A stretch of DNA of 26,015 nucleotides from Burkholderiales bacterium (GTDB lineage Bacteria > Pseudomonadota > Gammaproteobacteria > Burkholderiales > Burkholderiaceae_C). The position numbers were made by a program, and so were the translations under genes. This document shows, one piece after another, positions 31 to 18,889 of the stretch (positions are counted from its first letter, which is position 1; every line of letters starts with the position of its first letter). The DNA is taken from positions 1-26,015 of the forward strand of contig JAABTC010000001.1 of the NCBI GenBank assembly GCA_011390055.1. Direction: 5' to 3'. Below the pieces are notes generated by a model, which saw only the letters and a list, made by a program, of their open reading frames with translations, was not told where the DNA came from and did not search any database.

Positions 31-1005
31 TCACCGCCCCTGCTGCTCCATCAGCAGATAGGTGTTGTACGCGTTGATGCGGTTGGCCGCACGGAACAGC
101 GGCAGCGCCTGGAAACGCGACCAATCGGCCTTGGCATAGGCTTCCTCGAACGGCTCGAGGTTGCGCGCCGCCTCGCCCATCGTCTGCCGCAGATGGAGCA
201 GGTAGTCGCGCGTCAGGGCCAGATCCTCGCGCGGCGTTCGCGACACGGGGCCGTGGCCGGGGATCAGCATTCGAGGCGCGAACTCGATCAGGCGGTCGAG
301 CGACTCGATCCACTGGCGGCTGTCGGCCTGGCCGACGAACGGGATGCGGCCGCGAAACACCAGGTCGCCCGCGAACAGCGCGCCCGACTTCGGCAGGAAC
401 ACCACCAGGTCTTCCGGCGTGTGCGCAGGCCCCACGTGGCGGATGCGGAACTCCTGGCCGCCCAGCCGCAAGACGGTGTCTGACCGATCGAGCCAGCGAT
501 CCGCCGGCACCAGTCGCGTGCGTTCATCGATCCACGGGAACAGTTCCTCGCGGCTGGACTCCAGGCGTCGCGCCGCGGTGTCGGAGTTCAGGTATTCGCG
601 CCCCGAGGGGTGCGCGATGATCGTCGCACCCACGGCCTTGAAGGCCTGCAAGCCATAGATGTGGTCGGCGTGGTAGTGCGTCACGATCACATGGCGGATA
701 GGCTGGGACGTCACGCGACGGATTTCGGCAATCAGTTCCCGGGCCAAAGTGGGCGAACCGAGCGCATCGATGACCACGACGCCGGCCTGGGTGACGACGA
801 ACCCGGCGTTCGAAATGAAATTCCGGTTGGCCGCCGACCCCAGCGCTGCTTCGCCTTGAACGAACCAGACATCGCGCGCAACCTCGGTGGCCTTCACGGG
901 CGAGGCGGCAACCCCCGACGTGGCGAAGGCAAGCCCACACACGACAAGCAGGCCGATCAGCGCGCTGCGCCGGCTCGCAGCGGCGAAGACCCTGGCCAGG
1001 CGCAT
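31..1005 (-). CDS. Exported metallo-beta-lactamase-fold hydrolase, SoxH/SoxG-like (about 324 aa)
   Basis: Intact metal motif THYHADH, later HTPED and PGHG motifs, and an N-terminal signal peptide (MRLARVFAAASRRSALIGLLVVCGLAFA). Start moved to ATG 1005, just past the stop of the upstream gene at 1010. Confidence 0.85.
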   Translation of the reverse strand: MRLARVFAAASRRSALIGLLVVCGLAFATSGVAASPVKATEVARDVWFVQGEAALGSAANRNFISNAGFVVTQAGVVVIDALGSPTLARELIAEIRRVTSQPIRHVIVTHYHADHIYGLQAFKAVGATIIAHPSGREYLNSDTAARRLESSREELFPWIDERTRLVPADRWLDRSDTVLRLGGQEFRIRHVGPAHTPEDLVVFLPKSGALFAGDLVFRGRIPFVGQADSRQWIESLDRLIEFAPRMLIPGHGPVSRTPREDLALTRDYLLHLRQTMGEAARNLEPFEEAYAKADWSRFQALPLFRAANRINAYNTYLLMEQQGR

Positions 1006-1009
1006 CGCG

Positions 1010-1423
1010 CTACGGCTTGATGTACGCAAAGCCCTGCTTCTGCAGCTTGGCGATCCGCACCACGCCGGAGGGTGTGAACTCGGCCTCCTGAACGAACTGC
1101 TCCTTCTTCAGGTTCCGGTTGCGCAACGTGATCTCGCAGATCTCGAACTTGACGCCACGCGCCACCAGCGCCGCCACCGGACCGGCATACGTGCTGCCGT
1201 TGGCATCCTTGGCACCTTCCATCAGGAAGTCGACGCCGTCGGCGTGCGTCACCACGGTGACCTTGGCGGCCGGATCGACGTCGAGGTGGTTGCGGATGTT
1301 GCGCAGCCCCTTGAGCCCCTGGTTGGCCGCATGGTCGATGTGATAGATGACGGTGTCCTTAGCCGTTGCGGTTACGGACAGCAGCGCGAAGGCGGCGCCG
1401 AGAATCCAGTGCTTGGTTTGCAT
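1010..1423 (-). CDS. Exported DsrE/DsrF-like family protein (137 aa)
   Basis: Sec-type signal peptide, motifs VVTHADGVDFL and GVKFEICEITL (single Cys), C-terminal GFAYIKP, and RBS AGGAGA upstream. Confidence 0.85.
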   Translation of the reverse strand: MQTKHWILGAAFALLSVTATAKDTVIYHIDHAANQGLKGLRNIRNHLDVDPAAKVTVVTHADGVDFLMEGAKDANGSTYAGPVAALVARGVKFEICEITLRNRNLKKEQFVQEAEFTPSGVVRIAKLQKQGFAYIKP

Positions 1424-1497
1424 GAGGTCTCCTGTTGAGGTTCATCGATTGGAATGTACGAGGCTGCGGGCTGCCATAGAGAAAACTGCTCAGGCGG

Positions 1498-2454
1498 CTA
1501 TTCGCGCTCGATCTCGAGGTAGGTGCGGCTGGCGTTGCCAGGATGCAGCTCGGCGCTGTTGGCAAGGCCGCGCCAAGGCGCGAGGTCGAAGCTTTTGATG
1601 GCGGCGCTGACATCGACGCCGTCGTCGACCGCGCGCTTCATGTGCGCGCGCAATGCCCGCAGGTAGCGCGTGGTCTGCTCGGTGGCCGTTCCCACGTCCG
1701 TGACGCGCCCATGGCCGGGCACGATGCGGCTGGGCGACAGCGCGGCAAGCTCATCAAGGCTTGCCACCCAGGCCAGCGTGCTCGACACGGGGATCACGCC
1801 GAGCAGGCGGTCCACGTAGACCAGATCCCCCGAGAACAGCACGCGCGACTGCGGCAGCCAGACCAGCAGGTCGCCCGGCGTGTGGCCACCACCGCGGTGT
1901 TTGAGCTCGAAACGCACGCCGCCCAGCTCAAGCGCCGTGTCGCGTCCGCTCAGCCAGCGCGTGGCCAGCGCGGGCTCGGTCCCGTCGGCCTTGGCGCCCA
2001 GCACGCTGCGCAGCGCCGCGAGCTGGTCGCCACCGCGGTTGGCCATGTCGGCGCGCCCGCTTTCGTGGGCGATGATTTCCGCACCCTGCGCCTTGAAGTA
2101 GCCATTGCCCAGCCAGCGATGGTCCTGGCCGCCGGTGTTGAAAACCCACTTCACCGGCTGCATGGTCACGCGCTGGACGGCCCGATGGATATCGCGTGCG
2201 CTGCTCCAGGTCGCGCCCGGGTCGATCAACACCGCACCGTCGGCCGTGACCACGAGGCCGATGTTGGCATTGAGCCCTTCATTCAGTGCCGTGCGCGCCC
2301 CGGTCTCGCCGACATGGGCGAACACACCGTCGGCCACGCGCTCGAAACGCACCTCCACCGCGAACACCGGCAACGCGGCCAGCACCGTCAGCAGGCTGGC
2401 CACCAGCAGGTCGCGCAACCACGACGGGGGTGCGGCGGAGAACCGGTGCGCCAT
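1498..2454 (-). CDS. Second exported MBL-fold protein, SoxH-like, with a degenerate metal motif (about 318 aa)
   Basis: NANIGLVV, NTGGQDHRWLGN in place of HxHxDH, GHTPGD, VLFSGDLV and PGHG. Start moved to ATG 2454 (MAHRF...), where a signal peptide begins 5 nt after the soxB stop. Confidence 0.85.
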   Translation of the reverse strand: MAHRFSAAPPSWLRDLLVASLLTVLAALPVFAVEVRFERVADGVFAHVGETGARTALNEGLNANIGLVVTADGAVLIDPGATWSSARDIHRAVQRVTMQPVKWVFNTGGQDHRWLGNGYFKAQGAEIIAHESGRADMANRGGDQLAALRSVLGAKADGTEPALATRWLSGRDTALELGGVRFELKHRGGGHTPGDLLVWLPQSRVLFSGDLVYVDRLLGVIPVSSTLAWVASLDELAALSPSRIVPGHGRVTDVGTATEQTTRYLRALRAHMKRAVDDGVDVSAAIKSFDLAPWRGLANSAELHPGNASRTYLEIERE

Positions 2455-2459
2455 GGCTC

Positions 2460-4199
2460 TCACGCGCTCGCGATGCCCGGGTTGCCCGCCACGCCGACAA
2501 GCTTGGGCGTGTTGACCTTGCGCGTCTTCACGCGTCCGCCCTGCGACTTGAGCCAGGCTTCCACATGCTCCCAAACCGGCTTCACGCCGGGCATCGTCCG
2601 CGCCTCTTCAGCCACCGGCGCCCAGCCAGCCACCTTGTACTTCTTCGCGGCCTCGATCGGTCGGCCGCCCAGGCGCATGTCGCCGATGCGCGAGCCCATT
2701 TTCTCGCCCGGTGTGCAGGTGTAAGTCAGGCCACCGACGCGCACCATGTCGCCGCCCTGCTGGTAGTACGGGTCGGGGTTGAAAAGGTTGTCAGCCACGT
2801 CTTCGAGCACCGTCTTGATGAACTCACCCGTCATCTCGCTGACGGTGGCGTAGGGATAGGTGATGGCGAGCTGGTCCATCAGCAACTCGCGCGTGATGGC
2901 CTGCCCCGGCAACAGCGTGGTGCCCCAGCGGAAACCAGGCGAAAAGGCGATCTGCGCGCCCTGCGTGTCCATCAACGCATCGCAGATCAACTGGTCCCAA
3001 CTGCCATTGAAGTTGCCGCGGCGATAGAGCAGGCCTTCGGTCACCGCCAGCTTCTCGGCCAGCTTGGTTTCGTAGGGAGCGCGAACCTTGGCGATCAGCG
3101 CGGCCATGTCGGCGTCGGCCTGCAACTGGTTGGCAAACACCGGCAACAGGCGGTAGCGGAAGTCTGCCACCTTGCCACCCTTGACGTCGAAGTCCAGCAC
3201 GCCGAGGAACTTGCCATTGCTGCCGGCGTTGGTGACCAGGGTCGTGCCGCCCGCGTTCCTGACCGGCACCGCCACCGGCACGCCGTCGTGCGTGTGGCCG
3301 CCCAGGATGGCGTCGATGCCGCGCACGCGCGAGGCCATCTTCAAGTCGACGTCCATGCCGTTGTGCGACAGCAGCACGACCACCTGCGCGCCCTTGGCCC
3401 GCGCCTCGTCGACCACCTTCTGCAGGTTGTCGTCCTGGATGCCGAAGCTCCAGTCGGCGACCAGGTAGCGCGGGTTGGCGATCGGGGTGTAGGGGAAGGC
3501 CTGGCCGACGATCGCACAGGGCACGCCGTTGATCTCGCGCATCACGTAGGGTTTGAACACCGCGTCGCCGAAGTCCTGCGTCTTGACGTTCTGCGCGATG
3601 AACTCGATCTTGCCCTTGAAGTCGTTGTCGACGATCTGCTTGACGCGCTCCATGCCGTAGGTGAACTCCCAGTGGCCTGTCATCACGTCCACGCCGAGCA
3701 GCTTGGCGGCGTCCACCATGTCCTGCGCGTCGGTCCACAGCGACGTGGCCGAGCCCTGCCAGGTGTCGCCGCCGTCCAGCAGCAAGGCGCCCGGACGGCT
3801 GGCCTTCATCTGCTTGACCAGCGTGGCCAGGTGGGCAAAACCACCCACCTTGCCGTAACGGCGAGCGGCACGCTCGAAGTCGAGGTAGGTGTAGCCGTGC
3901 GCCATCGGCGTGCCGGGCGGGATGCCGGCGCGCTTCAGCAGGTGCTCGCCGACCAGGTGCGGCAGCTGCCCGTTCATGTCCGCCACGCCGAGGTTCACGC
4001 TCGGTTCACGGAAGTGGATCGGCTTCAATTGCGCATGGCAGTCCGTCATGTGCAGGAAGGCGACGTTGCCGAACGGAGGAATGTCGTACAGGCCTTTCTG
4101 CGCCGTCGCGGCATCGGCCTCGGACCAGCGGGCCAGACCCATGCCGGCGACGCCGGCCGCGCCGAGCATCTGGACGAATTCGCGCTTCGATAGATTCAT
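2460..4199 (-). CDS. soxB: SoxB thiosulfohydrolase (579 aa)
   Basis: Tat-like leader SKREF, 5'-nucleotidase-family metal motifs (HMTDCHAQ, LDGGDTWQG, MTGHWEF, LSHNG, GGHTHD), and SoxB-typical NPDPYYQQGGDMVR. Confidence 0.97.
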   Translation of the reverse strand: MNLSKREFVQMLGAAGVAGMGLARWSEADAATAQKGLYDIPPFGNVAFLHMTDCHAQLKPIHFREPSVNLGVADMNGQLPHLVGEHLLKRAGIPPGTPMAHGYTYLDFERAARRYGKVGGFAHLATLVKQMKASRPGALLLDGGDTWQGSATSLWTDAQDMVDAAKLLGVDVMTGHWEFTYGMERVKQIVDNDFKGKIEFIAQNVKTQDFGDAVFKPYVMREINGVPCAIVGQAFPYTPIANPRYLVADWSFGIQDDNLQKVVDEARAKGAQVVVLLSHNGMDVDLKMASRVRGIDAILGGHTHDGVPVAVPVRNAGGTTLVTNAGSNGKFLGVLDFDVKGGKVADFRYRLLPVFANQLQADADMAALIAKVRAPYETKLAEKLAVTEGLLYRRGNFNGSWDQLICDALMDTQGAQIAFSPGFRWGTTLLPGQAITRELLMDQLAITYPYATVSEMTGEFIKTVLEDVADNLFNPDPYYQQGGDMVRVGGLTYTCTPGEKMGSRIGDMRLGGRPIEAAKKYKVAGWAPVAEEARTMPGVKPVWEHVEAWLKSQGGRVKTRKVNTPKLVGVAGNPGIASA

Positions 4200-6748: not shown

Positions 6749-7882
6749 CTAGTTCTTGGCACCATCGACCAGCCACTGGGCGATGGCCTTGGCGTCGGCT
6801 TCGCCGAGCGTCTGTGGTGGCATCGGAATCTGGCCCCAGACACCCGCGCTGCCATTCTTGATCTTGCCGGCAAGGTAGCCCACGCCATCGGCCTGCCCAG
6901 CGTACTTCTTGGCGACCTCGCGAAAGCCCGGCCCGACGATCTTGTTGTCGATGCCGTGGCACGCTACGCAGGTGTATTTTTGGGTCAACGCGATGGCCGC
7001 AGCGTTGCTGTTGCTGGCTTCGGGCTTGGCTGCGGGAGCAGGCGCCGGCGCAGCCGATGGCTTGGGCGCTGCGCCTTTCGGGGCCGCTGCAGGCGCCGGT
7101 TTGCTGGTGTCGGCGCCGTGCTGCGCGCCGACCGCCCGGTTCTGCTCCGACAGGTTGCCATGCGCGTCCCGCGCGAAGTCGGGCAGGAACGACGCCAGCG
7201 TCGGTACCGGTCCGCAGTCCTTCATGCACGCCACGGCCTTGACGTCGGGTGGGCGCTGGCCCATGCCGGCACCCGGCCAGAGCGCGTGCTCGGTCGTCAT
7301 GCCATGGCGGTTGGGCAGCAGCTTTTGCACCTCGGCGATGTTCTTGTCGGACAGCACGAAGTTGTCCGGCAGCACCTCGCCCATGTTGAGGATGTACGCG
7401 GTGACGGCATACACCTCCTCGGTGCTCAACGACTTGGGCTGCGTCCACGGCATCGCGCGGTTGATGTAGTCCCACAGCGTCGACACCGTGGACAGCTTCA
7501 TCAAGGTCGTGCGGCCAGGGAACGACGGATCGTTCAAGCGCGCCACGCGGCCGGTCTTCACGTCGTCCTTCGTGGTGCCGCCGACCATCGGGCTGAAGAC
7601 TTCGTTGCTCTCGCCGAAGATGCCGTGACAGGACGAGCACTTGCTCTCCCAGACCTCCATGCCCTTGGCCACCGAACCGGAGCCCTTGGGCAGACCCTTG
7701 AAGTCGGGCCGCACGTCGATGTCCCAGGACTTGATCTCCTTGGCGGTGGCCGGCCGGCCGACGCTCGGATAGGCCGCGGTCTGCGCCTGAGCAACGCCGG
7801 CCATCAAAATCAGCATCGCGGCGAATGCGATGGGGCCGACCCAGACGGCCCAGGCGTCGATGCGATCACGAGAGCTGGACAT
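6749..7882 (-). CDS. soxD: SoxD diheme cytochrome c subunit of sulfane dehydrogenase (377 aa)
   Basis: WDIDVRPD, heme motifs CSSCH and CVACH, WDYINRAMP, an Ala/Pro/Lys linker before a c551-like C-terminal domain, and overlap with the soxC stop. Confidence 0.95.
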   Translation of the reverse strand: MSSSRDRIDAWAVWVGPIAFAAMLILMAGVAQAQTAAYPSVGRPATAKEIKSWDIDVRPDFKGLPKGSGSVAKGMEVWESKCSSCHGIFGESNEVFSPMVGGTTKDDVKTGRVARLNDPSFPGRTTLMKLSTVSTLWDYINRAMPWTQPKSLSTEEVYAVTAYILNMGEVLPDNFVLSDKNIAEVQKLLPNRHGMTTEHALWPGAGMGQRPPDVKAVACMKDCGPVPTLASFLPDFARDAHGNLSEQNRAVGAQHGADTSKPAPAAAPKGAAPKPSAAPAPAPAAKPEASNSNAAAIALTQKYTCVACHGIDNKIVGPGFREVAKKYAGQADGVGYLAGKIKNGSAGVWGQIPMPPQTLGEADAKAIAQWLVDGAKN

Positions 7883-9248
7883 TCTTTACCTCGCCACTCT
7901 CCTGAACCAGCCAGGTCTGCACCGAGTGGTTGTGATAGATCGAACGCGAGCCGCGCACGGCACGCAACTGTTTGTAGGTCGGCTGCACATAGCCGGTTTC
8001 GTCGGTCGCGCGGCTCTGCACCAGCGCCGGCTTGCCGTCCCACACCCAATCGAGGTTGAAACGCGTCAGGCACTTGGACATCACCGGGCCTTCGAGCCGC
8101 GCGGCGCGCCAGTTGCGCCCCCCGTCGACCGACACATCCACCTTCTTGACTTTGCCGCGGCCCGACCAGGCCAGGCCGCTGATGTTGTAGAAGCCCTGGT
8201 CGAGCAGCACCTGGCCGCCCGAGGGCGTGGTCACCACGCTCTTGCACTCCTGAGTGCTCGTGTACTGGCGGTGCAGCCCGCCCGGCATCAGGTCGATGTA
8301 GTGGACGGCCTCGTCCTTGGCGCCGTAGGGCTTGTCGCCGACCTCGATGCGGCGCAGGTACTTGACCCAACTCACGCCCTGCACCCCAGGAACCACGAGG
8401 CGCAGGGGATAGCCGTTCTCCGGGCGCAGCATCTCGCCGTTCTGCCCGTAGGCGACGAGCACCTCGCCGCTCTCGACCAACTCCATCGGCAGCGTACGCG
8501 TCATCGACGAGCCGTCGGCACCCTCACCCAGCACATAGCGCGCGCGTTTGTAGTCGACGCCCGCCATGTCGAGCAGGATCTTCAGCGGCACGCCGGTGAA
8601 CTCGCTGCAACTGAGCATGCCGTGGCTGTACTGGCAGGTCGGCACGGCCACGTTGCCCCACTCCATGCCGGTGTTGGCGCCGCATTCGATGAAGTGAAAG
8701 CGACTCACCGACGGCAGCCGCATCAGCTCGTCCATCGTGAAGACCATCGGCGTCTTCATGATCTTGTCGTCCGAGCCGTTGAGCATCAAGCGGTGCTTGG
8801 ACGGATCGATGTCCCACCAACCCTGGTGATGGCGCTCGAAGTGCAGGCCGCTCGGTGTGATGATGCCGAACAGCGACTGCAGCGGCGCGAACGACACCGA
8901 GGACTGCGTGGTTTGCGTCAGACCGGGGCTGCGCCGGCGCTGGACGTTGGCTTCGTACTTCGACGGCTTGCCGTAGCCGTCGGTGGCCACCGGCTGGCCG
9001 AGGCCCTTGCTGTGCTCGGGCAACTCGAGGATGTTGGGGTCGCCGCCGCTGGGTGGCACCGGGTTGGCCGCAGCCAGGGCGACCGGCGCAGCCACTGCCG
9101 CCCCCGCCGCCGCGAAGGCAGTGCGAATGAAGTCGCGCCGCCCACGCTTGGCTTCAGCGAAGACCTGGCGCACGCCCGCCGGATCGAGGAAGCTCTCCGG
9201 CGCCTTGATCAGGCGGCCGGCCCCTACGGCCTTGTTGTACGAGTCCAA
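7866..9248 (-). CDS. soxC: SoxC molybdopterin sulfane dehydrogenase subunit (about 460 aa)
   Basis: Tat motif GRRDFI, GIITPSGLHFERHH, Moco-ligand FIECGAN, EQ-less QNGEMLRPENGYPLRLVVPG and ATDETGYVQP. Start inferred at TTG 9248 behind AAGGAA, which removes the overlap with the regulator. Confidence 0.93.
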   Translation of the reverse strand: MDSYNKAVGAGRLIKAPESFLDPAGVRQVFAEAKRGRRDFIRTAFAAAGAAVAAPVALAAANPVPPSGGDPNILELPEHSKGLGQPVATDGYGKPSKYEANVQRRRSPGLTQTTQSSVSFAPLQSLFGIITPSGLHFERHHQGWWDIDPSKHRLMLNGSDDKIMKTPMVFTMDELMRLPSVSRFHFIECGANTGMEWGNVAVPTCQYSHGMLSCSEFTGVPLKILLDMAGVDYKRARYVLGEGADGSSMTRTLPMELVESGEVLVAYGQNGEMLRPENGYPLRLVVPGVQGVSWVKYLRRIEVGDKPYGAKDEAVHYIDLMPGGLHRQYTSTQECKSVVTTPSGGQVLLDQGFYNISGLAWSGRGKVKKVDVSVDGGRNWRAARLEGPVMSKCLTRFNLDWVWDGKPALVQSRATDETGYVQPTYKQLRAVRGSRSIYHNHSVQTWLVQESGEVKNVQLS

Positions 9249-9280
9249 TGCAGTTCCTTGTGTAAGCACGGCGTGCGCCG

Positions 9281-9583
9281 TCACGAATGCAATGCCTGGC
9301 GCTCTGAACGCAGCACGTCGCACAACATGAGCGCCTGCGAATTGGCGACGTGATAGAAGATCTGTGCGCCAGCCCTGCGCCGCCCCAGAACCCCGCCGCG
9401 GTACAGCACACCCAGGTGCTGCGAAATGTTGGGCTGACTCACGTCCACTTTCTCCAGGAGCTGGCTCACGTTCTTCTCACCTTCGCAGAGTTCGTACAGG
9501 ATGCGCAGCCGCGTCGGCGTCGACAGCATCGCAAACAACTCTGCGGCGATGTCGAAGACCCGGCTTGAAACGGCATCACTCAT
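9281..9583 (-). CDS. ArsR/SmtB-family repressor, SoxR-like, with two Cys (100 aa)
   Basis: LSTPTRLRIL, SQPNISQHLGVL helix-turn-helix, IFY wing, C33 and C88; directly upstream of soxC. Confidence 0.9.
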   Translation of the reverse strand: MSDAVSSRVFDIAAELFAMLSTPTRLRILYELCEGEKNVSQLLEKVDVSQPNISQHLGVLYRGGVLGRRRAGAQIFYHVANSQALMLCDVLRSERQALHS

Positions 9584-9596
9584 CAGCTTGTGTATT

Positions 9597-9621
9597 CGGA
9601 TATCCGTCTACGCGCATATTA
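9597..9621 (-). promoter_or_regulatory. Candidate promoter/operator for the arsR-soxCD transcript
   Basis: TAATAT (-10-like) on the minus strand at 9616-9621, followed by the perfect palindrome CGGATATCCG (9597-9606), in an AT-rich gap. No convincing -35. Confidence 0.35.
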
Positions 9622-9711
9622 CGGCTTATCGAACTACACGGCACTCGGGGAAACCCGGATCCCCGGCGAAGCGCAGACCGCCAGCGAGGCTGGTGTGCCA
9701 CAGCACCGCCT

Positions 9712-10158
9712 TCAGGGCTTCAGCGTCCCGCGGCGGCGGTGCGGTTGCCAAGCCGCGATGTCGCGCACGATCGCTTCCCAGGGCAGTTGGGTCAGGCTGC
9801 CGTAGCGCTCTTGGGTGGCCACGACCATGGCATGCACGTCGGCTCGTGCATCGCCCAGCGCTCGCTGCAGGCCCACCAGACCGCCGCAGTGCAAACGCAG
9901 CGCCTGCGCGTGAATCATCGGACGCCCGGGGCTGGACAGATGCAGCGCAAAGCGCGCCCGCTCGTGCATGAGCGCCGCCAGCGTGCCGCAATTGGTGCGC
10001 GCCACGACCGAGCGGCACTCGACGATCTCGCGTTCGCCGATGCTGCGCCGGGCCGCCAGCTCGCAAGTCGCGGCCCGGGCCAGCAAGGCCTTGGCAAAGA
10101 CACAGATCGACCCGCTCTCGCAGCATGCGCTCGGTGCGGTTGGATCGTGATCGCTCAT
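9712..10158 (-). CDS. Cys-rich hypothetical protein (about 148 aa, 7 Cys)
   Basis: Co-oriented ORF in an operon-like arrangement. Start moved to ATG 10158, 11 nt after the previous stop. Motifs CVF, ECRS, TNCG, HCGGL. Confidence 0.75.
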   Translation of the reverse strand: MSDHDPTAPSACCESGSICVFAKALLARAATCELAARRSIGEREIVECRSVVARTNCGTLAALMHERARFALHLSSPGRPMIHAQALRLHCGGLVGLQRALGDARADVHAMVVATQERYGSLTQLPWEAIVRDIAAWQPHRRRGTLKP

Positions 10159-10169
10159 CGCACGCGGAT

Positions 10170-10388
10170 TCAGTCGTCGCCGGTCGGACCCGCTTCTCGA
10201 ACCTGGCACAGCAAATCTTCGGCCAGCTGCTGGTTGTCGGCAAACATCACTTTGACCTTCGCGTCCGCGGCCACCGACTGCGACGACCGAAGGGACTTGG
10301 CATGGGTCGACGCTTCCTTGAAGGCAATGAACTCGGCCAGCTTCTCGATCTGCGCGAAAGGCCGCACGCTGAAGACGAAGTAGGGCAT
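10170..10388 (-). CDS. Small hypothetical protein (72 aa)
   Basis: Fills the gap exactly between two co-oriented genes (10- and 11-nt spacers) and has a protein-like composition (MPYFVF...KVKVMFADN). Confidence 0.75.
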   Translation of the reverse strand: MPYFVFSVRPFAQIEKLAEFIAFKEASTHAKSLRSSQSVAADAKVKVMFADNQQLAEDLLCQVREAGPTGDD

Positions 10389-10398
10389 CGTGGTTCGC

Positions 10399-10728
10399 TC
10401 AAAGGTAGTGTTTGGTCAGCCGGCGGCGACCGGGCACGGCCTTCTGGATGACGACGCCATGAACTGCCGCCAGATCGGGCAGCGGCTGTTCGGCATAGGC
10501 CGGGTTGAGCGCGTGCAGACGCCAGCCATCGCCCACCTGCACCAGCTGGCGAAAGGTCCACTCACCGGCCACCTGGGCCAGAACGAAGCAGCCGGGGCGC
10601 AGCGCACCGTCGGGCTCGATGATGATGATCTCGCCGGCGTTGAATTCGGGCGCCATGCTGTCGCCGAGCACGCGCAGCGCGAAGGACTCGCCGCCGCTGC
10701 AGCCGGGGTCGTCGTTGAGCTCGCTCAC
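10399..10728 (-). CDS. Stand-alone S24/LexA-like peptidase-fold protein lacking the catalytic Lys (109 aa)
   Basis: FALRVLGDSMAPEF, GCFVLA, WTFRQL and LHALNPAY. GTG 10728 overlaps the upstream TGA (GTGA). The long N-terminal part of the track ORF 10399-11502 is spurious. Confidence 0.85.
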   Translation of the reverse strand: MSELNDDPGCSGGESFALRVLGDSMAPEFNAGEIIIIEPDGALRPGCFVLAQVAGEWTFRQLVQVGDGWRLHALNPAYAEQPLPDLAAVHGVVIQKAVPGRRRLTKHYL

Positions 10729-12212
10729 AGGATCTCCGACCTCATCTGCGCCGCCGGCACGCCCGCCGCCAGCAACGCGGCACCGAGCCCTTCGACGAAC
10801 GCTTGAGGGCCGGCGAGGTAGAAGTCGCAATCGATGTCGAACTGGTCGGCCCGGATCGCAGCGGCGACCTGTGCAGCGCCCGCCGCCGGATCGAGTTCGC
10901 TGAACGCCGCGTACTCGAAGGCATCCAGCGCCTCGGACCAGGCGCGGCACTGGTTGGCCTGGAAGTGACCGTCGCTGCGCGTGGCCAGCCAGTACAGCGA
11001 CAGAGACGGCGACGCGTCGAGCGACAGCGCGTGCTCGATCAGGCTCTTGATCGGCGCGAAGCCGGTGTCGCAGGCCGCGAACACCAGCGGCCGGTTGCTG
11101 TCGGCGAGCACGAACTCGCCGATGGGGCCCCAAAGGTTGAGCGGGCTTCCGACGGCCAGCAAGCCGTCGAACACCATGCGTGCAAAGGCGCTGGCGCCAT
11201 CGCGCGGGATGTAGAAGTGCAGGTTGCGATCGTCGCACGGGCAACTGGCGATCGGATGCGTGGCTCGGACGTCGTCGCCCGCCGTGGCCGCCGAGCCGGC
11301 GCGGCCGAGCGTGACCGACTGCCCGGCCAGGAACCGCAGGCGGTTGGTGCGCGGGGTCTGCAGGTGCAGCAGCCGCGTGTCGGGTGCGAGCTCCCGCACG
11401 GCGCGCACCGTGGCCACGATCTGCTGCTGCGGGATGTCGGCCGGCCCGCCCGCCTCCAGCGTCTCCAGCGTGAGTTCGCTGCTGGCCGCCGTGTGCGCGC
11501 ACAGCAGCGTGTAGCCCTGCCGCTTCTCGGCCTCCGACAGCGGGTAGTCAAAGGGCATCACCTTGGCAACCTCGCCGGCGATCACGCGCACCTTGCACAT
11601 GCCGCAGCTGCCGTTGCCGCAGCCGTAGTTCAGCGCAAGGCCCGACTTCAGGCCGGCCTGCAGCAGCGTGTCGTGACCCTCGACCGCGAACTGGTGGCCG
11701 CTCGGGCGCAGGGTTACCTGTGCCGCCACGACTTTCAGGATGTCATCCATGACGTCGAGAGGATCGACCGCTTCGGTGGCCAGTGCGCGCGCGAGGCCTT
11801 CGTTCAGTTCTCGCTGCAAGATGCGCAGCGATGCATCGCCGCCCGGCGTCTGCAGCAGCAGCGCGTCGATGCGGTCGCGCAGGCCGATCACCAGGGCGTG
11901 GTAGCGCTGCAGGTGGCGCTGCACGTCGGCCATCTCCTGGCCCTGATGAAACAAGCGCTGGGCCAGCACCTCCTGGCTCGGCAACAGCCGCTCGCGCACG
12001 CGCCGGCCAAACGCATCCTCCTTGATGTGCACGACGCGTTCGAGCATGCCGGACTGCTCGAGCTGCATCTGTGGGTACAGCTCGAGGAGCGCCTGCGTCG
12101 ACACCAGGCCATCTGCGAGCGCGATCTCGCCCGCGCGCACGCGCTGTTGCAGCACGCCGCGCGGCACGCCGACCAGTTGCGCTGCGCGCCAGACGGTTAT
12201 CCATTGGGCCAC
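10725..12212 (-). CDS. Fusion of an HTH-like/coiled-coil N-terminus, a [2Fe-2S] ferredoxin and FNR-like FAD/NAD(P) domains (495 aa)
   Basis: N-terminal ITVWRAAQLVGVPRGVLQQRV (excisionase/MerR-like HTH), CGNGSCGMC...TLLC cluster motif, FLAGQ, IASCPCDD, ACDTGFAPIKS and YLAGP; GTG start. Confidence 0.88.
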   Translation of the reverse strand: MAQWITVWRAAQLVGVPRGVLQQRVRAGEIALADGLVSTQALLELYPQMQLEQSGMLERVVHIKEDAFGRRVRERLLPSQEVLAQRLFHQGQEMADVQRHLQRYHALVIGLRDRIDALLLQTPGGDASLRILQRELNEGLARALATEAVDPLDVMDDILKVVAAQVTLRPSGHQFAVEGHDTLLQAGLKSGLALNYGCGNGSCGMCKVRVIAGEVAKVMPFDYPLSEAEKRQGYTLLCAHTAASSELTLETLEAGGPADIPQQQIVATVRAVRELAPDTRLLHLQTPRTNRLRFLAGQSVTLGRAGSAATAGDDVRATHPIASCPCDDRNLHFYIPRDGASAFARMVFDGLLAVGSPLNLWGPIGEFVLADSNRPLVFAACDTGFAPIKSLIEHALSLDASPSLSLYWLATRSDGHFQANQCRAWSEALDAFEYAAFSELDPAAGAAQVAAAIRADQFDIDCDFYLAGPQAFVEGLGAALLAAGVPAAQMRSEIL

Positions 12213-13111
12213 GGAGCCTCCGTGGTTCGATCCAGGTAGCGCGCCCGATAGAGCAAGCGCGGTTGCGCTGGGTCGTCGGCGAAGGCGTCGCGCGCGTGCA
12301 GCACGTTGTGGGCGACGATGCCCATGCCGGCCTCCAGCCGTACGCGCAGCACGTCGGCGTTGCCGTCGGCCAGGAAGCGCTCGAGGAAGGCGACGGCCTT
12401 CAAGGTGGCGGCATCGTTCTTCCAGAGGATGCTGCGCGTGCGCGCGGTGTAGCGCATGTGCAGCGTGCCGTCGCGCGCATCGACCGAGAATACCGGGCCA
12501 GTTTGGGCGGCACGTGCCACACCGCGCCCATCCTCGCGCGCCGGGATCGTCATCGCGTCGGGCGCCATCAGCGCCCGCAGCCAGCGCGGCGAGGCGTCGC
12601 GCAGCGCGATGTAGGCCAGCTCATGGTCGAGCAGCGAGTTGACGCCGCCGCGGGTGGCCGGCCGCACGCAGTGCAGCACGAAGGCCCGGATGCGCTGTCC
12701 TTGCGGGTGGTAGTAGCCGTCGGTGTGCCAGCCGAGTGGCCGGTCGGTGTACGGGATGTAGCCGCTGCGATCCTGCGTCGCCGGACTTACCGTGATGCTC
12801 GAGACGCCGTCCTCGTCGGCCAGCCAGTTGCCGTCCAGGCGCTGCAGCCCGAGTTGACGCGCCACCGCCAGCGCAACGCCCTTGTGTTGCACGCCGCAGC
12901 GGTTGCGATAAATCACCATGTTCCAGCGCGCACAGGCCTGCAGCAGCGCAACGCGCTCGCCGCGGGTCAAGGCGGCGGCATCGGCGACCTCGACGACCAG
13001 GTCTTCGGCGCGACGGGCGCGGTTCGCCAGCTTGCGGGCACGCCAGGCAAAATAGCCTGCATCGTCGACGAGGTCGAACGGCGACAGCGCGGGATGCAGG
13101 ACAGCGCTCAT
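12197..13111 (-). CDS. TauD/TfdA-family Fe(II)/2-oxoglutarate dioxygenase (304 aa)
   Basis: WHTDG (HxD), LHCVRPA.GG.N, NVLHAR (distal His) and RLLYRAR. Confidence 0.9.
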   Translation of the reverse strand: MSAVLHPALSPFDLVDDAGYFAWRARKLANRARRAEDLVVEVADAAALTRGERVALLQACARWNMVIYRNRCGVQHKGVALAVARQLGLQRLDGNWLADEDGVSSITVSPATQDRSGYIPYTDRPLGWHTDGYYHPQGQRIRAFVLHCVRPATRGGVNSLLDHELAYIALRDASPRWLRALMAPDAMTIPAREDGRGVARAAQTGPVFSVDARDGTLHMRYTARTRSILWKNDAATLKAVAFLERFLADGNADVLRVRLEAGMGIVAHNVLHARDAFADDPAQPRLLYRARYLDRTTEAPWPNG

Positions 13112-13115
13112 GGTG

Positions 13116-13760
13116 TCAGTCGCCGCTCATCGACGTTCGCCGGGACGCGCGTGGCTTGTCGGACAACAGATCGAGGATCGCGCTGCGCACGATGTCGACC
13201 GCTTCAGGGGCTTCGATGGCCATCACCTGATCGAGGACCCAGCGCCGGTCGTGTGGCGGCAGGGTCGGCTCGAGTCGGCTGCCGAGGTAGCGCACGAAAC
13301 CGAAGTCCGGCATGAAGGCCTCATCGGTCGTTGCGCTGGCCGGCTCGCCACCGAACTCGGCATAGTGCGGCGACAGTTCGTTGACCAGGTCGATGAAGCT
13401 GTCCTGGTAGCGCGCACCGTCGGCGCGCGGGCCGAGCAAGTCGCCCTCGTTGCCGGCCAGGGTGTCGGCGCAGCGAACGACCAAAGCCGTGGTGAAGCGG
13501 ATGCGGGTTGAAGCGTCCATCTTCGCGTAAGCGGTGCGGTCAACCACCGCGATCAGGAAGACCAGCACCTCGCGCAGGAAGTCGAAGTAATTGCCGCCCG
13601 CCTCGATGTCGAACTTCGCTCCGCGCATGCGCTTCAACGTGTTGTGCGCCACGCGCCAGACGATGAACGCCATCGCGCTGGCCTGCTGCTCGGCGCTCTT
13701 GGGCTCACTGGCCTTGAACCAGTGGCTCTTGATCCGCATGCGCGGCGGGACGAGGCTCAT
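13116..13760 (-). CDS. Hypothetical protein (214 aa)
   Basis: ATG overlaps the upstream TGA (TGATG) and the stop lies 4 nt before the TauD-family start. Globular, largely helical-looking sequence. Confidence 0.8.
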   Translation of the reverse strand: MSLVPPRMRIKSHWFKASEPKSAEQQASAMAFIVWRVAHNTLKRMRGAKFDIEAGGNYFDFLREVLVFLIAVVDRTAYAKMDASTRIRFTTALVVRCADTLAGNEGDLLGPRADGARYQDSFIDLVNELSPHYAEFGGEPASATTDEAFMPDFGFVRYLGSRLEPTLPPHDRRWVLDQVMAIEAPEAVDIVRSAILDLLSDKPRASRRTSMSGD

Positions 13761-14089
13761 CAGTACCCACCCTTGCCCAAAGGCTGCGGCAGGCCGGCGA
13801 CCTTGCAGCCCTGTTTGGCGGGGCCCACTGGAAACAGGTCGTAGAGCGCCTTGCTGTCGCAGCCCGGCAGCACCTCGGCCAGCCCCTTGAGCATGTTGCG
13901 GAAGTTCGGCGTGTGGCCGTGTTCGCGAAATTCGTCGCGCAGATAGGCGACGACCTTCCAGTGGTCTTCGGTGAGCTCGATCTGCTCGGCCGCGGCGATC
14001 ACCTTCACCACCTCGTCGCTGAAGTCGGCCTCGACCAGGAAGCCCTGCTCGTCGGTGTCGAGCTCGCTGCCGTTGACGACGTACCCCAT
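13760..14089 (-). CDS. DsrC/TusE-family paralogue lacking the C-terminal Cys (RspA-type; 109 aa)
   Basis: DTDEQGFL, ELTEDHWKVV.YLR and LYDLFP.GPAKQGCKVAGLP align with DsrC at 18557, but it ends PLGKGGY instead of PTGCV. Start moved to ATG 14089 behind GGGAGA. Confidence 0.92.
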   Translation of the reverse strand: MGYVVNGSELDTDEQGFLVEADFSDEVVKVIAAAEQIELTEDHWKVVAYLRDEFREHGHTPNFRNMLKGLAEVLPGCDSKALYDLFPVGPAKQGCKVAGLPQPLGKGGY

Positions 14090-14109
14090 GTTGTCTCCCT
14101 TGCAGAATG

Positions 14110-14724
14110 TCAGGCGCCGACGGCCGCGGCCGACTTGTGGGGCACGAACAGGCCGCAACCCAGGCGGCGGTGCCGACCCAGGCCGGACTCGAGCACGCGC
14201 AGCGAATCGCCCGGCGCCAAGCCGTCGAGCATCAGGCTGTAGCCGGTCAGCGTTTGGCCGCCGTTGTCGATCATTTGGCGACGTCCGCAGATGGGCCGGC
14301 ACGGCAGGCTCGCGGCCTCGAGCTCGTGACCGATCGTCGCCAGGAACGCCAGCTCGTCGTCATCGTCGGTCGCCACCAGGTGCGCATAGAGCGTGCTGTG
14401 CGGCAGCAGCTCACGCACCTGGCTGCGGTCGCCCACTTGCAGCGCATGGCCGTCGAGATCGAGGCGAGCGCCTCGCAAGCACTGCAGATCGCCGATCCGT
14501 TCGCGCGCGACGCGCAGCGTCAGCCGCGCGCGCTGCGACAGCAATGCCGTCGGGCCATGCCCCGCCACGGCATTGATGCGGTGCACACCGGCATGGGCCG
14601 GGTCCGCGAGCCAGGGCAGGTGGCGCTCCAACACTGCGGCCAGCGCGCGGCGGTGGTCGCGCGGAACAGCATCGCCGCGCAACGCGAAGGTGACATCGAC
14701 CCGGGACGAAGCGCTCGACCGCAT
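14110..14724 (-). CDS. cas6: Orphan Cas6-family RAMP protein resembling type I-MYXAN Cas6/Cmx6 (204 aa)
   Basis: N-terminal VDVTFAL.G..VP.DH, ARLTLRV, GYSLML.GL...DS..V, and C-terminal Gly-rich loop GLGRHRRLGCGLFVP (GhGxxxxxGhG). Confidence 0.82.
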   Translation of the reverse strand: MRSSASSRVDVTFALRGDAVPRDHRRALAAVLERHLPWLADPAHAGVHRINAVAGHGPTALLSQRARLTLRVARERIGDLQCLRGARLDLDGHALQVGDRSQVRELLPHSTLYAHLVATDDDDELAFLATIGHELEAASLPCRPICGRRQMIDNGGQTLTGYSLMLDGLAPGDSLRVLESGLGRHRRLGCGLFVPHKSAAAVGA

Positions 14725-14728
14725 CTGG

Positions 14729-14950
14729 TCAGGCCTCGGGTCGGGGCTGACCGTCGGCCCAGCGCAGGAGCGCCTCGCCCCACTCGCGCGCCGTCTGCGG
14801 GTCGATGTCGAAGACGGTGAAGCGGCTCTTCTCTCGGATGCGCGTTCGCAGCAGGCTCATGCCACCGGCTTCATGGTCGAGTTGCTGCAGCTCGATTTCC
14901 TGACCGCCCAGGGGCGCGCGCAACTTGGCAAGGCTGGTCGTGCGCGGCAT
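14729..14950 (-). CDS. Small hypothetical protein (73 aa)
   Basis: GAGGA RBS before ATG 14950 (MPRTTSLAKL...). Stop lies 4 nt before the cas6 start. Confidence 0.75.
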   Translation of the reverse strand: MPRTTSLAKLRAPLGGQEIELQQLDHEAGGMSLLRTRIREKSRFTVFDIDPQTAREWGEALLRWADGQPRPEA

Positions 14951-15093
14951 TCGTTTCCTCCGGGTGCCGCATTGAGCGCGGGCGCCCGGCAAGCGTCCAT
15001 ACCCGGTACGGGTGAGCGTCGCCTACGCCATCCGGGTAGTGCCGCAGGCATCGATCCGGTCTATCGTCGCCGCAGCACACAGGAGCGCCCACC
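14951..15093. promoter_or_regulatory. Divergent intergenic region between the accessory block and dsrA
   Basis: The only gap between the two divergent arms, with RBSs at both ends and repeated ACCCGG/CCGGGT words. No clear sigma70 or sigma54 boxes found. Confidence 0.6.
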
Positions 15094-16389
15094 ATGGCCA
15101 AGAAGCAGCACCCGACGCCGATGCTCGACGAGCTGGAAAGCGGCCCCTGGCCCAGCTTCGTCACCGGCTTGAAGCGGCTGGCCGACGACAAGGACTACAT
15201 GGTTGACCTGATGGGTCAGCTCGAGACCTCCTACCGCACGCGCAAAGGCTATTGGAAGGGCGGCACGGTCGGCGTCTTCGGCTACGGCGGCGGCGTGATC
15301 CCGCGCTTCACCGAGCTGAAGGACGAGAAAGGCGCGCCGGTTTTCCCCGACGCCGCCGAGTTCCACACCCTGCGCGTGCAGCCGCCCGCCGGCATGCATT
15401 ACGACACCCAGGTCCTGCGCAAGATGGCCGACATCTGGGAAGAGCACGGCTCGGGCCTGATCGCCTTCCACGGCCAGTCGGGCGACATCATGTTCCAGGG
15501 GGCGAAGACCAACAAAGTCCAGGACGCCTTCGATGCGCTGAACGAACTCGGCTTCGACCTGGGTGGCGCCGGCCCCGCGGTGCGCACCTCGATGAGCTGC
15601 GTCGGCGCCGCACGCTGCGAGCAGAGCTGCTACGACGAATCGCGCGCGCACCGCCAGGTGATCAACAACTTCCTCGACGACATTCACCGCCCAGCCCTGC
15701 CCTACAAGTTCAAGTTCAAGTTTTCGGGGTGCCCGAACGACTGCATGAACTCGATCCAGCGCTCCGACATGGCCGTCATCGGCACCTGGCGCGACAACAT
15801 GCGCACCGACGAGGAACTGGCACGCAAGTGGTTCGACAAGCACGGCATGGACGAGCTGGTCAACGACGTGGTCGCACGTTGCCCGACCAAGACCATCCTG
15901 CTCAAGGAGATCAAGAACGTCGCTGCGGGCGACACCATCTCCAGCGTCAAGGTCAGCGACACGCACGCACTCGAGATCGACAACAGCAACTGCGTGCGCT
16001 GCATGCACTGCGTCAACGTCATGACGGGCGCGCTGGCCAAGGGCACGGACACCGGCGCGTCGATCCTGATCGGCGGTAAGCGCACGCTCAAGATCGGCGA
16101 CCTGATGGGCACCGTGATCGTGCCCTTCATGCCGCTGAAGACCGACGAGGACTACGACGCGCTGGTCGAACTTGGGCAGAAGGTGATCGACTTCTTCGCC
16201 GAGAACGCACTCGAGCACGAGCGCACCGGCGAAATGATCGAGCGCATCGGCTTGGTCAATTTCCTTGAGGGCATCGGCGTCGACATCGACGCCAACATGG
16301 TGGCCACGCCGCGTACCAATCCCTATGTGCGCACCGACGGCTGGGACGACGACGTCGCCCGGATCAACGCCAAGAAACAAGCCGCCTGA
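15094..16389 (+). CDS. dsrA: Dissimilatory sulfite reductase alpha subunit, reverse type (431 aa)
   Basis: TPMLDELESGPWPSFV, FHTLRVQPPAG, siroheme-[4Fe-4S] motif CVGAARC...CPNDC, YKFKFKFSG and CVRCMHC. Confidence 0.98.
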   Translation: MAKKQHPTPMLDELESGPWPSFVTGLKRLADDKDYMVDLMGQLETSYRTRKGYWKGGTVGVFGYGGGVIPRFTELKDEKGAPVFPDAAEFHTLRVQPPAGMHYDTQVLRKMADIWEEHGSGLIAFHGQSGDIMFQGAKTNKVQDAFDALNELGFDLGGAGPAVRTSMSCVGAARCEQSCYDESRAHRQVINNFLDDIHRPALPYKFKFKFSGCPNDCMNSIQRSDMAVIGTWRDNMRTDEELARKWFDKHGMDELVNDVVARCPTKTILLKEIKNVAAGDTISSVKVSDTHALEIDNSNCVRCMHCVNVMTGALAKGTDTGASILIGGKRTLKIGDLMGTVIVPFMPLKTDEDYDALVELGQKVIDFFAENALEHERTGEMIERIGLVNFLEGIGVDIDANMVATPRTNPYVRTDGWDDDVARINAKKQAA

Positions 16390-18556: not shown

Positions 18557-18889
18557 ATGGGCATCGAAGTCAACGGCACCACCTACGAAACCGACGAAGA
18601 AGGCTATCTGGCCGATCTGTCCGAATGGACCGAGGACATCGGCAAGGCGCTCGCGGTGGAAGAGAAGGTCGACATGACACCCGGCCACTGGGAGGTCGTG
18701 AATTTCCTGCGCGACTACTACAACGAGTACCAGATCGCGCCGGCCGTGCGCGTGCTGACCAAGGCCATCGGCAAGAAACTCGGCGAGGACAAGGGCAACA
18801 GCAAGTACCTCTACGAACTGTTCCCTTATGGCCCGGCCAAGCAGGCCTGCAAGATCGCCGGCCTGCCCAAGCCGACCGGCTGCGTCTGA
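18557..18889 (+). CDS. dsrC: DsrC sulfur carrier with both conserved Cys (110 aa)
   Basis: TDEEGYL, IAPAVRVL and YLYELFPYGPAKQACKIAGLPKPTGCV. Confidence 0.98.
   Translation: MGIEVNGTTYETDEEGYLADLSEWTEDIGKALAVEEKVDMTPGHWEVVNFLRDYYNEYQIAPAVRVLTKAIGKKLGEDKGNSKYLYELFPYGPAKQACKIAGLPKPTGCV

Follow-up and report, generated by a model that had tools for sequence, protein, structure and literature searches.

The window, that is, the whole stretch of DNA analysed, spans 26,015 nucleotides (nt) of a Burkholderiales bacterium (assembly GCA_011390055.1, contig JAABTC010000001.1, positions 1-26,015, forward strand). It contains nine co-oriented genes, named g1 to g9, which lie divergent from dsrA of the oxidative (reverse) Dsr (rDsr) pathway and are the subject of this analysis. 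The reverse Dsr pathway is the main route of stored-sulfur oxidation in many bacteria, and the gene list given in textbooks (dsrABEFHCMKLJOPNRS) passes for complete. Genes g1 to g5, the core of the set, were found in almost every genome with oxidative dsrA sampled in the class Gammaproteobacteria, and in almost none without it.

The gene map was built from the periodicity of G+C at third codon positions (GC3) together with family matches. Most of the long open reading frames (ORFs) in the window are spurious because its G+C content is about 67%. The nine genes run on the minus strand from position 14950 down to 9712. The ATG of g1 (14729-14950; DUF6967) lies 143 nt from the dsrA start (15094, plus strand), and the gene is followed after 4 nt by g2 (14110-14724; Cas6/Cmx6-like, 204 amino acids) and after a further 20 nt by g3 (13760-14089; DsrC-like). 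A TGATG junction (1-nt overlap) joins g3 to g4 (13116-13760; 214 amino acids, all-helical, no family), and a gap of 4 nt separates g4 from g5 (12197-13111; TauD family). The next gene, g6 (10725-12212; 495 amino acids, with an N-terminal domain followed by Fer2 and FNR-like parts), overlaps g5 by 16 nt and g7 (10399-10728; a stand-alone S24 domain) by 4 nt (GTGA). Gaps of 10 and 11 nt precede g8 (10170-10388; 72 amino acids, no family) and g9 (9712-10158; 148 amino acids, Cys-rich, no family), respectively, and g9 ends the operon. These coordinates agree with the earlier note on this DNA, which had described nine packed, co-oriented genes divergent from dsrA with gaps of 20 nt or less, the TGATG and GTGA junctions and the 16-nt overlap. 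In pairwise comparison with six orthologous loci, the ratio of nonsynonymous to synonymous substitution rates (dN/dS) was 0.10-0.64 for all nine genes and mostly below 0.5. All nine, the small ones included, are real genes under purifying selection.

Association of the gene set with dsrA

The class sample consisted of 340 genomes from about 230 families, in which DsrA was called at E ≤1e-100 and the Cas6-like protein was identified by PF09559. DsrA was present in 103 genomes and PF09559 in 108. Both were found in 99 genomes, DsrA only in 4, the Cas6-like protein only in 9 and neither in 228, and about 96% of the sampled gammaproteobacterial dsrA genomes carried the Cas6-like gene. Two discordant cases, among the nine Cas6-only and four DsrA-only genomes, were inspected. 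The contig of one (G596) terminates inside the TauD-like gene adjoining the Cas6-like gene, and that of the other (G717) terminates 125 nt past the dsrA start; both are assembly breaks at the junction and no true exceptions. The Cas6-like gene and dsrA were divergent and 1.6-2.6 kb apart in 22 of 35 pairs compared by eye, the rest being far apart or on separate contigs. A phylum-level sample contained five PF09559 genomes; these five, and no others, had the g4 family, and each of them has DsrA. Each PF09559 match in the two genome samples lay in a dsrA genome or in a genome too fragmented to exclude dsrA (two discordant cases inspected). With so many families covered, the joint pattern of the Cas6-like gene and DsrA is strong, although related genomes do not count as independent observations.

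Scanning one genome per species gave 80 loci, in which the proteins of the window were placed by tblastn. All 80 loci were from Burkholderiales (the Rubrivivax, Ideonella, Rhizobacter, Ramlibacter, Aquabacterium and Leptothrix group), and among the carriers were two isolates, Rubrivivax albus ICH-3 and Ideonella sp. A 288. Genes g1 to g7 were detected in practically every sufficiently long locus, g8 in most and g9 in about half of them, while g3 was lost from three of the 80. The genes dsrA, dsrB, dsrE and dsrC stood on the opposite side in every locus with enough flank, and the order and orientation (dsrBA<- ->g1...g9) were identical throughout the related loci. The recurrence of similar genes beside other dsr operons, which the earlier note had suggested, holds in these 80 loci and in the class sample. 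Its view of the module as dedicated to rDsr is likewise upheld, by strict synteny in about 80 genomes and by the almost one-to-one occurrence of the Cas6-like protein and DsrA across the class; the neighbourhood and profile comparison against dsrA that it had proposed found that the genes track rDsr, and not a failure to co-occur with it.

A genus sample of 41 relatives gave the same picture at close range. DUF6967 adjoins dsrA in all 10 dsrA-positive genomes and was found in none of the 30 dsrA-negative ones, with one extra match on a 1.9-kb contig that ends at the expected dsrA start. As a separate observation, in one genus relative (G013:C24:175166-176855) the dsrA match was in two overlapping pieces and the adjoining DUF6967 match was truncated, a pattern that may reflect decay of both dsr and the module in that relative, or an assembly error.

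The neighbours of the nine genes were less constant. In the window, the plus strand carries, in order, dsrA (15094-16389), dsrB, dsrEFH, dsrC (18557-18889), dsrMK, dsrL, dsrO and dsrP. Below g9, on the minus strand, are an ArsR/BigR-like regulator (9281-9583), a SoxC-like molybdoenzyme, a dihaem cytochrome, SoxY and SoxA, and further below a SoxX-like cytochrome, SoxB and genes for metallo-beta-lactamase-fold and DsrE-like proteins. Most related loci lack the ArsR and Sox genes. These are not conserved neighbours, and the place of the module between rDsr and Sox, correctly described for this DNA, is therefore local to this genome. A tenth gene, DUF6866 (about 350 amino acids), was present in 42 of the 57 Rubrivivax-group loci with room for it, mostly after g9 and otherwise after g8 or g7; it also followed the module in three genomes checked by family search. 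The window has no DUF6866, a search of the 62%-complete genome to which it belongs did not find the gene either, and the ArsR/BigR-like regulator and the Sox cluster occupy its usual place here. The nine-gene boundary is peculiar to this genome.

Two side observations concern this flank. The regulator, of the ArsR/SmtB family, had its closest specific resemblance, below cut-off, to the sulfite-sensing BigR; its gene follows g9 at a distance of 128 nt on the downstream side, and about 40 nt at its 3' end are shared with the 5' end of the SoxC-like ORF (7866-9323). Downstream of soxB (31-2574, minus strand), a DsrE-like gene stands between two metallo-beta-lactamase-fold genes, and these may serve the Sox cluster as accessories of the persulfide dioxygenase type or in sulfur transfer.

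The description of g1 to g9 as a single nine-gene system stands in so far as the operon is real. A reading as two sub-modules that became fused in this clade, in which relatives usually have the tenth gene DUF6866, fits the genes better than one indivisible system. The core (g1-g5) consists of DUF6967, the Cas6/Cmx6-like protein, the DsrC-like protein ending in KGGY, the helical g4 and the TauD-like "DsrQ". The add-on (g6-g9) consists of a putative helix-turn-helix (HTH)-[2Fe-2S]-FNR-like protein, a pseudo-S24 domain, the 72-amino-acid protein and the Cys-rich protein. In two genomes from other families of the same order (G421 and G358), only g1 to g5 adjoin dsrA. At 200 kb from dsr, G421 carries g6 with AAA_5/MoxR, DUF2201, DUF411 and DUF302 genes, then g7, g8 and g9; G358 has g6 alone, far from dsr. 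On a 498-kb metagenome contig (L107), g6, g7, g8 and DUF6866 form an operon of their own, which fccAB and tusA separate from g1-g5. The same contig has, in the g3 position between the Cas6-like gene and g4, a gene for a 174-amino-acid tandem-TusA protein with two CPGP motifs (L107, 9458-9982). A replacement of the DsrC-like protein by TusA was considered for this contig and softened, as a KGGY DsrC-like gene persists 7 kb away beside an SCP2-domain gene.

A typical gammaproteobacterial locus (G640) has, divergent from dsrA, a TauD-like gene, a small protein, the Cas6-like gene, the KGGY DsrC-like gene, further genes and then g4. The further genes include one resembling a PKHD-type 2-oxoglutarate oxygenase confirmed at the equivalent position of G596, where genes for DUF6866, a Sel1-repeat protein and an AAA_5/MoxR ATPase were found in the same region. 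A rhodanese stands between g3 and g4 in one locus (L104) and beside g4 in another (L103), and a MoxR ATPase (AAA_5) together with DUF2201 adjoins g4 in L095 and in Candidatus Thiodiazotropha. DUF2201_N was not found in two genus relatives, and the MoxR/DUF2201 pair lies outside the window. In a low-GC class relative (G102), the Cas6-like gene (8146-8817 of L112, which is G102:C11:1188000-1204000) is solitary, followed by a thioredoxin-fold protein and divergent from rnc-era-recO; g4 stands beside a small rhodanese 355 kb away, dsrA is 600 kb away, and g6 is represented by its N-terminal domain only, as a 145-amino-acid protein. The parts of the module are kept in this genome even when scattered.

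A second oxygenase, a 2OG-Fe(II) PKHD-type hydroxylase, was seen within the gammaproteobacterial version of the module (L114, 7624-8304), and a similar ORF occupies the equivalent place in another locus (L116, 5748-6422). A PKHD-type oxygenase inside the module adds to the hint that O2-dependent hydroxylation matters.

Predicted proteins and the dsrA-g1 spacer

The g1 product (73 amino acids from the ATG at 14950) matched Pfam PF22295 (DUF6967) at E 3e-30 and had a dN/dS of 0.10-0.34. Look-ups in the ESM Atlas for g1, g4 and g9 returned only their own DUF or unnamed families. The g2 product matched PF09559 at E 2e-52 (178.5 bits against a cut-off of 26.7) and, over its full length, TIGR02807 (Cmx6) with 142.3 bits against a cut-off of 98.85; the nearest solved chain was that of a type I-B Cas6 (PDB 8fcj_B, E 4e-12). 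Judged from these matches, g2 is a true member of the Cas6 family. Nine diverse dsr-linked members keep the Gly-rich loop GLGxxRxxGCGxFxPxK and share as invariant residues LPW, R65, R71, a Glu, a Phe and the final Lys K197; a DH pair is present in 8 of the 9, and there is no invariant His among them. No CRISPR array was found in the window, and g2 was the only operon protein to match a defence model, the eight others having no such match. Cas1 was not found in two complete module-bearing genomes (G388 and G453), and three other module-bearing genomes have Cas1 elsewhere in the genome. The suggestion of a repurposed defence fold is borne out to this extent, as the Cas6-like g2 has no CRISPR context.

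The g3 product matched PF04358 (E 2.5e-32) and was 43% identical to the true DsrC of the same genome (18557-18889) up to the arm. It ends in ...PLGKGGY, with the penultimate Cys replaced, and the KGGY end was present in 64 of 65 clade members and in all 7 distant loci examined. The second Cys, ten residues upstream, is present here (KQGCK) and is C, A, G or S across the subfamily. The subfamily is defined by a predicted sulfur-inert arm with a fixed end. Since the penultimate Cys is replaced and the second is unconserved, persulfide or trisulfide chemistry of the DsrC type through the g3 arm would be impossible.

There was no Pfam or NCBIfam match for g4. Its family comprised 365 clusters at 50% identity and at least 859 at 90% identity, all unnamed, and no match was found in the plasmid collection. 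The AlphaFold2 (AF2) model of g4 was all-helical with a predicted local distance difference test (pLDDT) score of 90.8. Foldseek with this model found nothing below E 0.4 in the PDB, and the exhaustive structural alignment gave a homologue of Cbp3, a cytochrome b assembly factor (6rwt_A; Z 9.1 over 162 residues), with the next match at Z 6.7.

The g5 product matched PF02668 (TauD) at E 1.6e-18, and its WHTDGYY (HxD) motif and the distal His and Arg were conserved in 76 orthologues. Its closest curated models were those of gamma-butyrobetaine and trimethyllysine hydroxylases, not TauD, and all were far below cut-offs; the sole match of a single-sequence PDB search, a lectin, was spurious and rejected. 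It is 52% identical to the TauD-like gene that lies directly divergent from dsrA in G640. The gene belongs to the TauD/TfdA family of Fe(II)/2-oxoglutarate dioxygenases as an orthologue of the gene called dsrQ, and it looks intact. According to Loeffler et al. 2020 (PMC7596348), a tauD-like gene divergent from dsrA was named dsrQ by Lenk et al. 2012 and was found in most of the aerobic chemotrophic sulfur oxidisers examined there, and its role in sulfite release from sulfonates is speculation. Another paper lists the function of DsrQ/DsrU as unknown. In the reachable literature the TauD-like gene is the only one of the nine that is named, and no description was found there of the partners, namely the Cas6-like, KGGY-DsrC, g4, DUF6967 and g6-g9 genes. 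The earlier note had stated that no named sox or dsr gene is among the nine; this is right for eight of them and wrong for g5, which corresponds to dsrQ as reported in PMC7596348.

In the add-on, the g6 product matched Fer2 at E 2.3e-14, with NAD_binding_1 (E 0.0011) and FAD_binding_6 (E 0.083) both below cut-off, and its best NCBIfam match, BenC, was far below cut-off. The Cys residues of the [2Fe-2S] cluster and the ASCPCDD motif were invariant. Read from the sequence, g6 has THPIAS where the flavin motif RxYS is expected and ACDTGFAP where the NAD motif GGxGxxP is expected. Its N-terminal 165 residues (putative HTH and helical linker) had a mean identity of 77% across orthologues, and no solved relative of this domain was found. 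The g7 product matched Peptidase_S24 (PF00717, E 1.9e-18), the C-terminal domain of lambda cI (E 2e-11) and LexA (1.6e-7). An invariant Arg60 takes the position of the catalytic general-base Lys, the nucleophile Ser is Asp in several orthologues and Cys10 is invariant; g7 is predicted to be catalytically dead and no peptidase. The g8 gene was conserved in 54 related loci (dN/dS 0.11-0.31) and accompanies g7 and g9 in G421 and g6 and g7 in L107. In an alignment of 43 orthologues, five Cys and two His of the g9 product are invariant, and a sixth Cys is nearly so. Its AF2 model (pLDDT 85.9) gave no solved-fold match (best Z 4.0), and its relatives in the AlphaFold DB were all uncharacterised. Repurposed folds with missing catalytic residues, as had been proposed, are accordingly seen in the S24 domain of g7 (Lys to Arg, variable Ser) and in g3 (no penultimate Cys). 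As for the proposed regulatory or nucleic-acid-binding folds, the Cas6, DsrC and S24 families were matched, and the HTH of g6 was found at sub-threshold level only.

When 52 distinct spacers were aligned, a conserved non-coding block of about 100 nt (14970-15068) was found between g1 and dsrA; its distance to the start codon of g1 is constant. It contains four sequence boxes, in order GAYGATAGACCG, CAYTACCC-N4-GGKKTA, CACCCGTACCGGGTATGGAC and GCGCTCAATG. The second box (in shorter form TACCC-N4-GGNTA) lies at 15024-15038, and each of three relatives has a single genomic copy of the third (CACCCGTACCGGGTATGGAC), in every case at this site. No covariation was detected in the block, its consensus fold was negligible on both strands (alifold -2 kcal), and there was no Rfam match within 9000-15300. 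The spacer palindromes were considered as RNA hairpins and rejected, as there was no covariation. The block is probably promoter or operator DNA of the divergent operons and not an RNA element.

Function of the module and alternative explanations

The module is read as an accessory gene set of the oxidative (reverse) Dsr pathway whose function would be a protein-level service or control of the Dsr machinery, to which we give a probability of about 0.5. A role at protein level is favoured because sulfur carriers (rhodanese, TusA) and chaperone-type ATPase/VWA pairs enter the module elsewhere, and because a DsrC look-alike with a sulfur-inert arm and an O2-dependent hydroxylase that looks intact are constant members of it. 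The core proteins would act around the DsrC mimic g3, which is predicted to keep the DsrC fold and the flexible C-terminal arm with KGGY instead of the reactive Cys. With fold and arm kept and the Cys replaced, g3 could dock at DsrAB, DsrEFH or DsrK without carrying sulfur. The Cas6-like protein, DUF6967 and g4 may be binding partners or a scaffold of g3, and g4, with its modelled Cbp3-like assembly-factor shape, stands elsewhere beside a MoxR AAA+ ATPase and DUF2201 (VWA-like). The DsrQ dioxygenase would add an O2-dependent step. The net effect would probably be that the Dsr machinery is assembled, repaired or placed under O2/redox-dependent control. In the Rubrivivax group, the fused g6-g9 sub-module, usually with DUF6866, most plausibly senses the redox state and would act on the operator-like block between the divergent dsrA and g1 promoters. 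A more specific form, in which the Cas6-derived protein, the sulfur-inert DsrC mimic, g4 and DUF6967 plug into or mature rDsrAB/DsrC and DsrQ modifies the arm or a partner in an O2-dependent manner, is rather unlikely to be right in all its parts.

Several observations weigh against this reading. Six genomes of other classes with oxidative-type DsrA (64-70% identity) had neither the Cas6-like protein nor g4, and Dsr therefore works without the module. Parts of the module are scattered in some genomes (G102), and kin genomes are non-independent observations. The resemblance of g4 to Cbp3 is below the safe level for helical bundles and may serve as a lead only. The HTH matches of g6 were all sub-threshold (HTH_psq in 10 of 13 orthologues, best E 0.0018; HTH_17 in 3 of 13). 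An RNA role may also apply to g2, which keeps a putative Gly-rich RNA-binding loop and invariant basic residues.

The last point leads to the explanation by RNA-level control. Here a hairpin in transcripts of dsr or of the module would be bound or cut by the Cas6-like protein, possibly together with DUF6967; Dsr expression would be set after transcription in this way, the other genes being accessory. We regard this as unlikely. The membership of g2 in the Cas6 family, the loop, Arg and Lys kept across distant lineages and the DH pair in 8 of 9 members all fit it, and so does the location of the gene, always within a few kb of the 5' region of dsrA where the two are linked; in G102 and G487, however, the Cas6-like gene is far from dsr. 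The spacer block shows no compensatory changes and has negligible consensus structure on either strand, no Rfam family lies within 9000-15300, and g2 has no invariant His, all of which speak against such a role. In a further explanation, by a purely transcriptional unit, g6 would be the dsr regulator and the remaining genes unrelated passengers retained through operon inertia. The highly conserved N-terminal domain of g6 with its sub-threshold HTH matches and the operator-like block between the divergent genes agree with this, but in lineages with g6 at another place or not found, g1-g5 still go with dsrA, and purifying selection acts on all nine genes; this explanation is quite unlikely.

Utilisation of sulfonates, in which the TauD-like enzyme frees sulfite from an organosulfonate and its neighbours merely support it, draws on the TauD fold, on the intact HxD...H residues and on the speculation for dsrQ that PMC7596348 reports. 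It is very unlikely, as the module has no transporter or sulfonate-pathway gene and the closest curated models of g5 are gamma-butyrobetaine and trimethyllysine hydroxylases, not TauD, and far below cut-offs. It would also cover one gene and leave the translational coupling to the Cas6-like, DsrC-like and g4 genes unexplained. The Cas6 and S24 (lambda cI-like) folds could further suggest a decayed CRISPR-Cas remnant or a prophage SOS-type switch that stands beside dsr by chance. The same gene order in about 80 species, the joint occurrence with dsrA in about 100 families, the signs that selection is purifying for each of the nine genes, the lack of an array and of other defence-model matches in the window, and the lack of g4 matches in the plasmid collection make this extremely improbable, and because of the conservation data a defence or SOS remnant is taken as excluded.

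For the accessory role in the Dsr pathway, the presence of the gene set in about 96% of the gammaproteobacterial dsrA genomes sampled points to an unrecognised step that makes, protects or regulates the Dsr machinery. Should the more specific form hold, in which DsrQ modifies the arm or a partner, dissimilatory sulfur oxidation would have a repair system or a switch responding to oxygen or redox state, built on the fold of a CRISPR nuclease that has lost its role in immunity. The gene set would also be a clear example of a Cas6 fold put to use outside CRISPR, and g3 would be a DsrC paralogue working without sulfur chemistry. The question is directly testable, since cultured carriers (Rubrivivax albus ICH-3 and Ideonella sp. 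A 288) exist.

Comparison with known systems

Compared with Cas6 of types I-B and I-MYXAN (Cmx6), g2 has a full-length match above the curated cut-offs and the conserved Gly-rich loop, but it is without a CRISPR array or another cas gene in the window. The g3 protein shares the fold family and the C-terminal arm (AGLPxP) with DsrC/TusE, whereas it has the invariant KGGY instead of the penultimate reactive Cys, and its second Cys is unconserved. Like dsrQ, g5 is a TauD-family gene in the operon divergent from dsrA; unlike it, g5 is the fifth gene and lies 2 kb from dsrA.

With the [2Fe-2S]-FAD-NAD(P)H reductases of the BenC/MmoC type, g6 shares the order of Fer2 followed by an FNR-like part and the C-x4-C-x2-C...C motif. 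It differs from them in an added N-terminal domain of 165 residues (putative HTH and helical), in altered flavin and NAD motifs and in scores far below every curated cut-off. The g7 protein matches the S24 beta-barrel domain of LexA, UmuD and lambda cI, but it is without their DNA-binding domain and cleavage-site region, and the Ser-Lys dyad is lost. Pairs of a MoxR AAA+ ATPase and a VWA-type protein serve in maturation, as in CoxD/CoxE and NorQ/NorD, and in other lineages g4 and g6 adjoin such a pair, AAA_5/MoxR with the VWA-like protein DUF2201.

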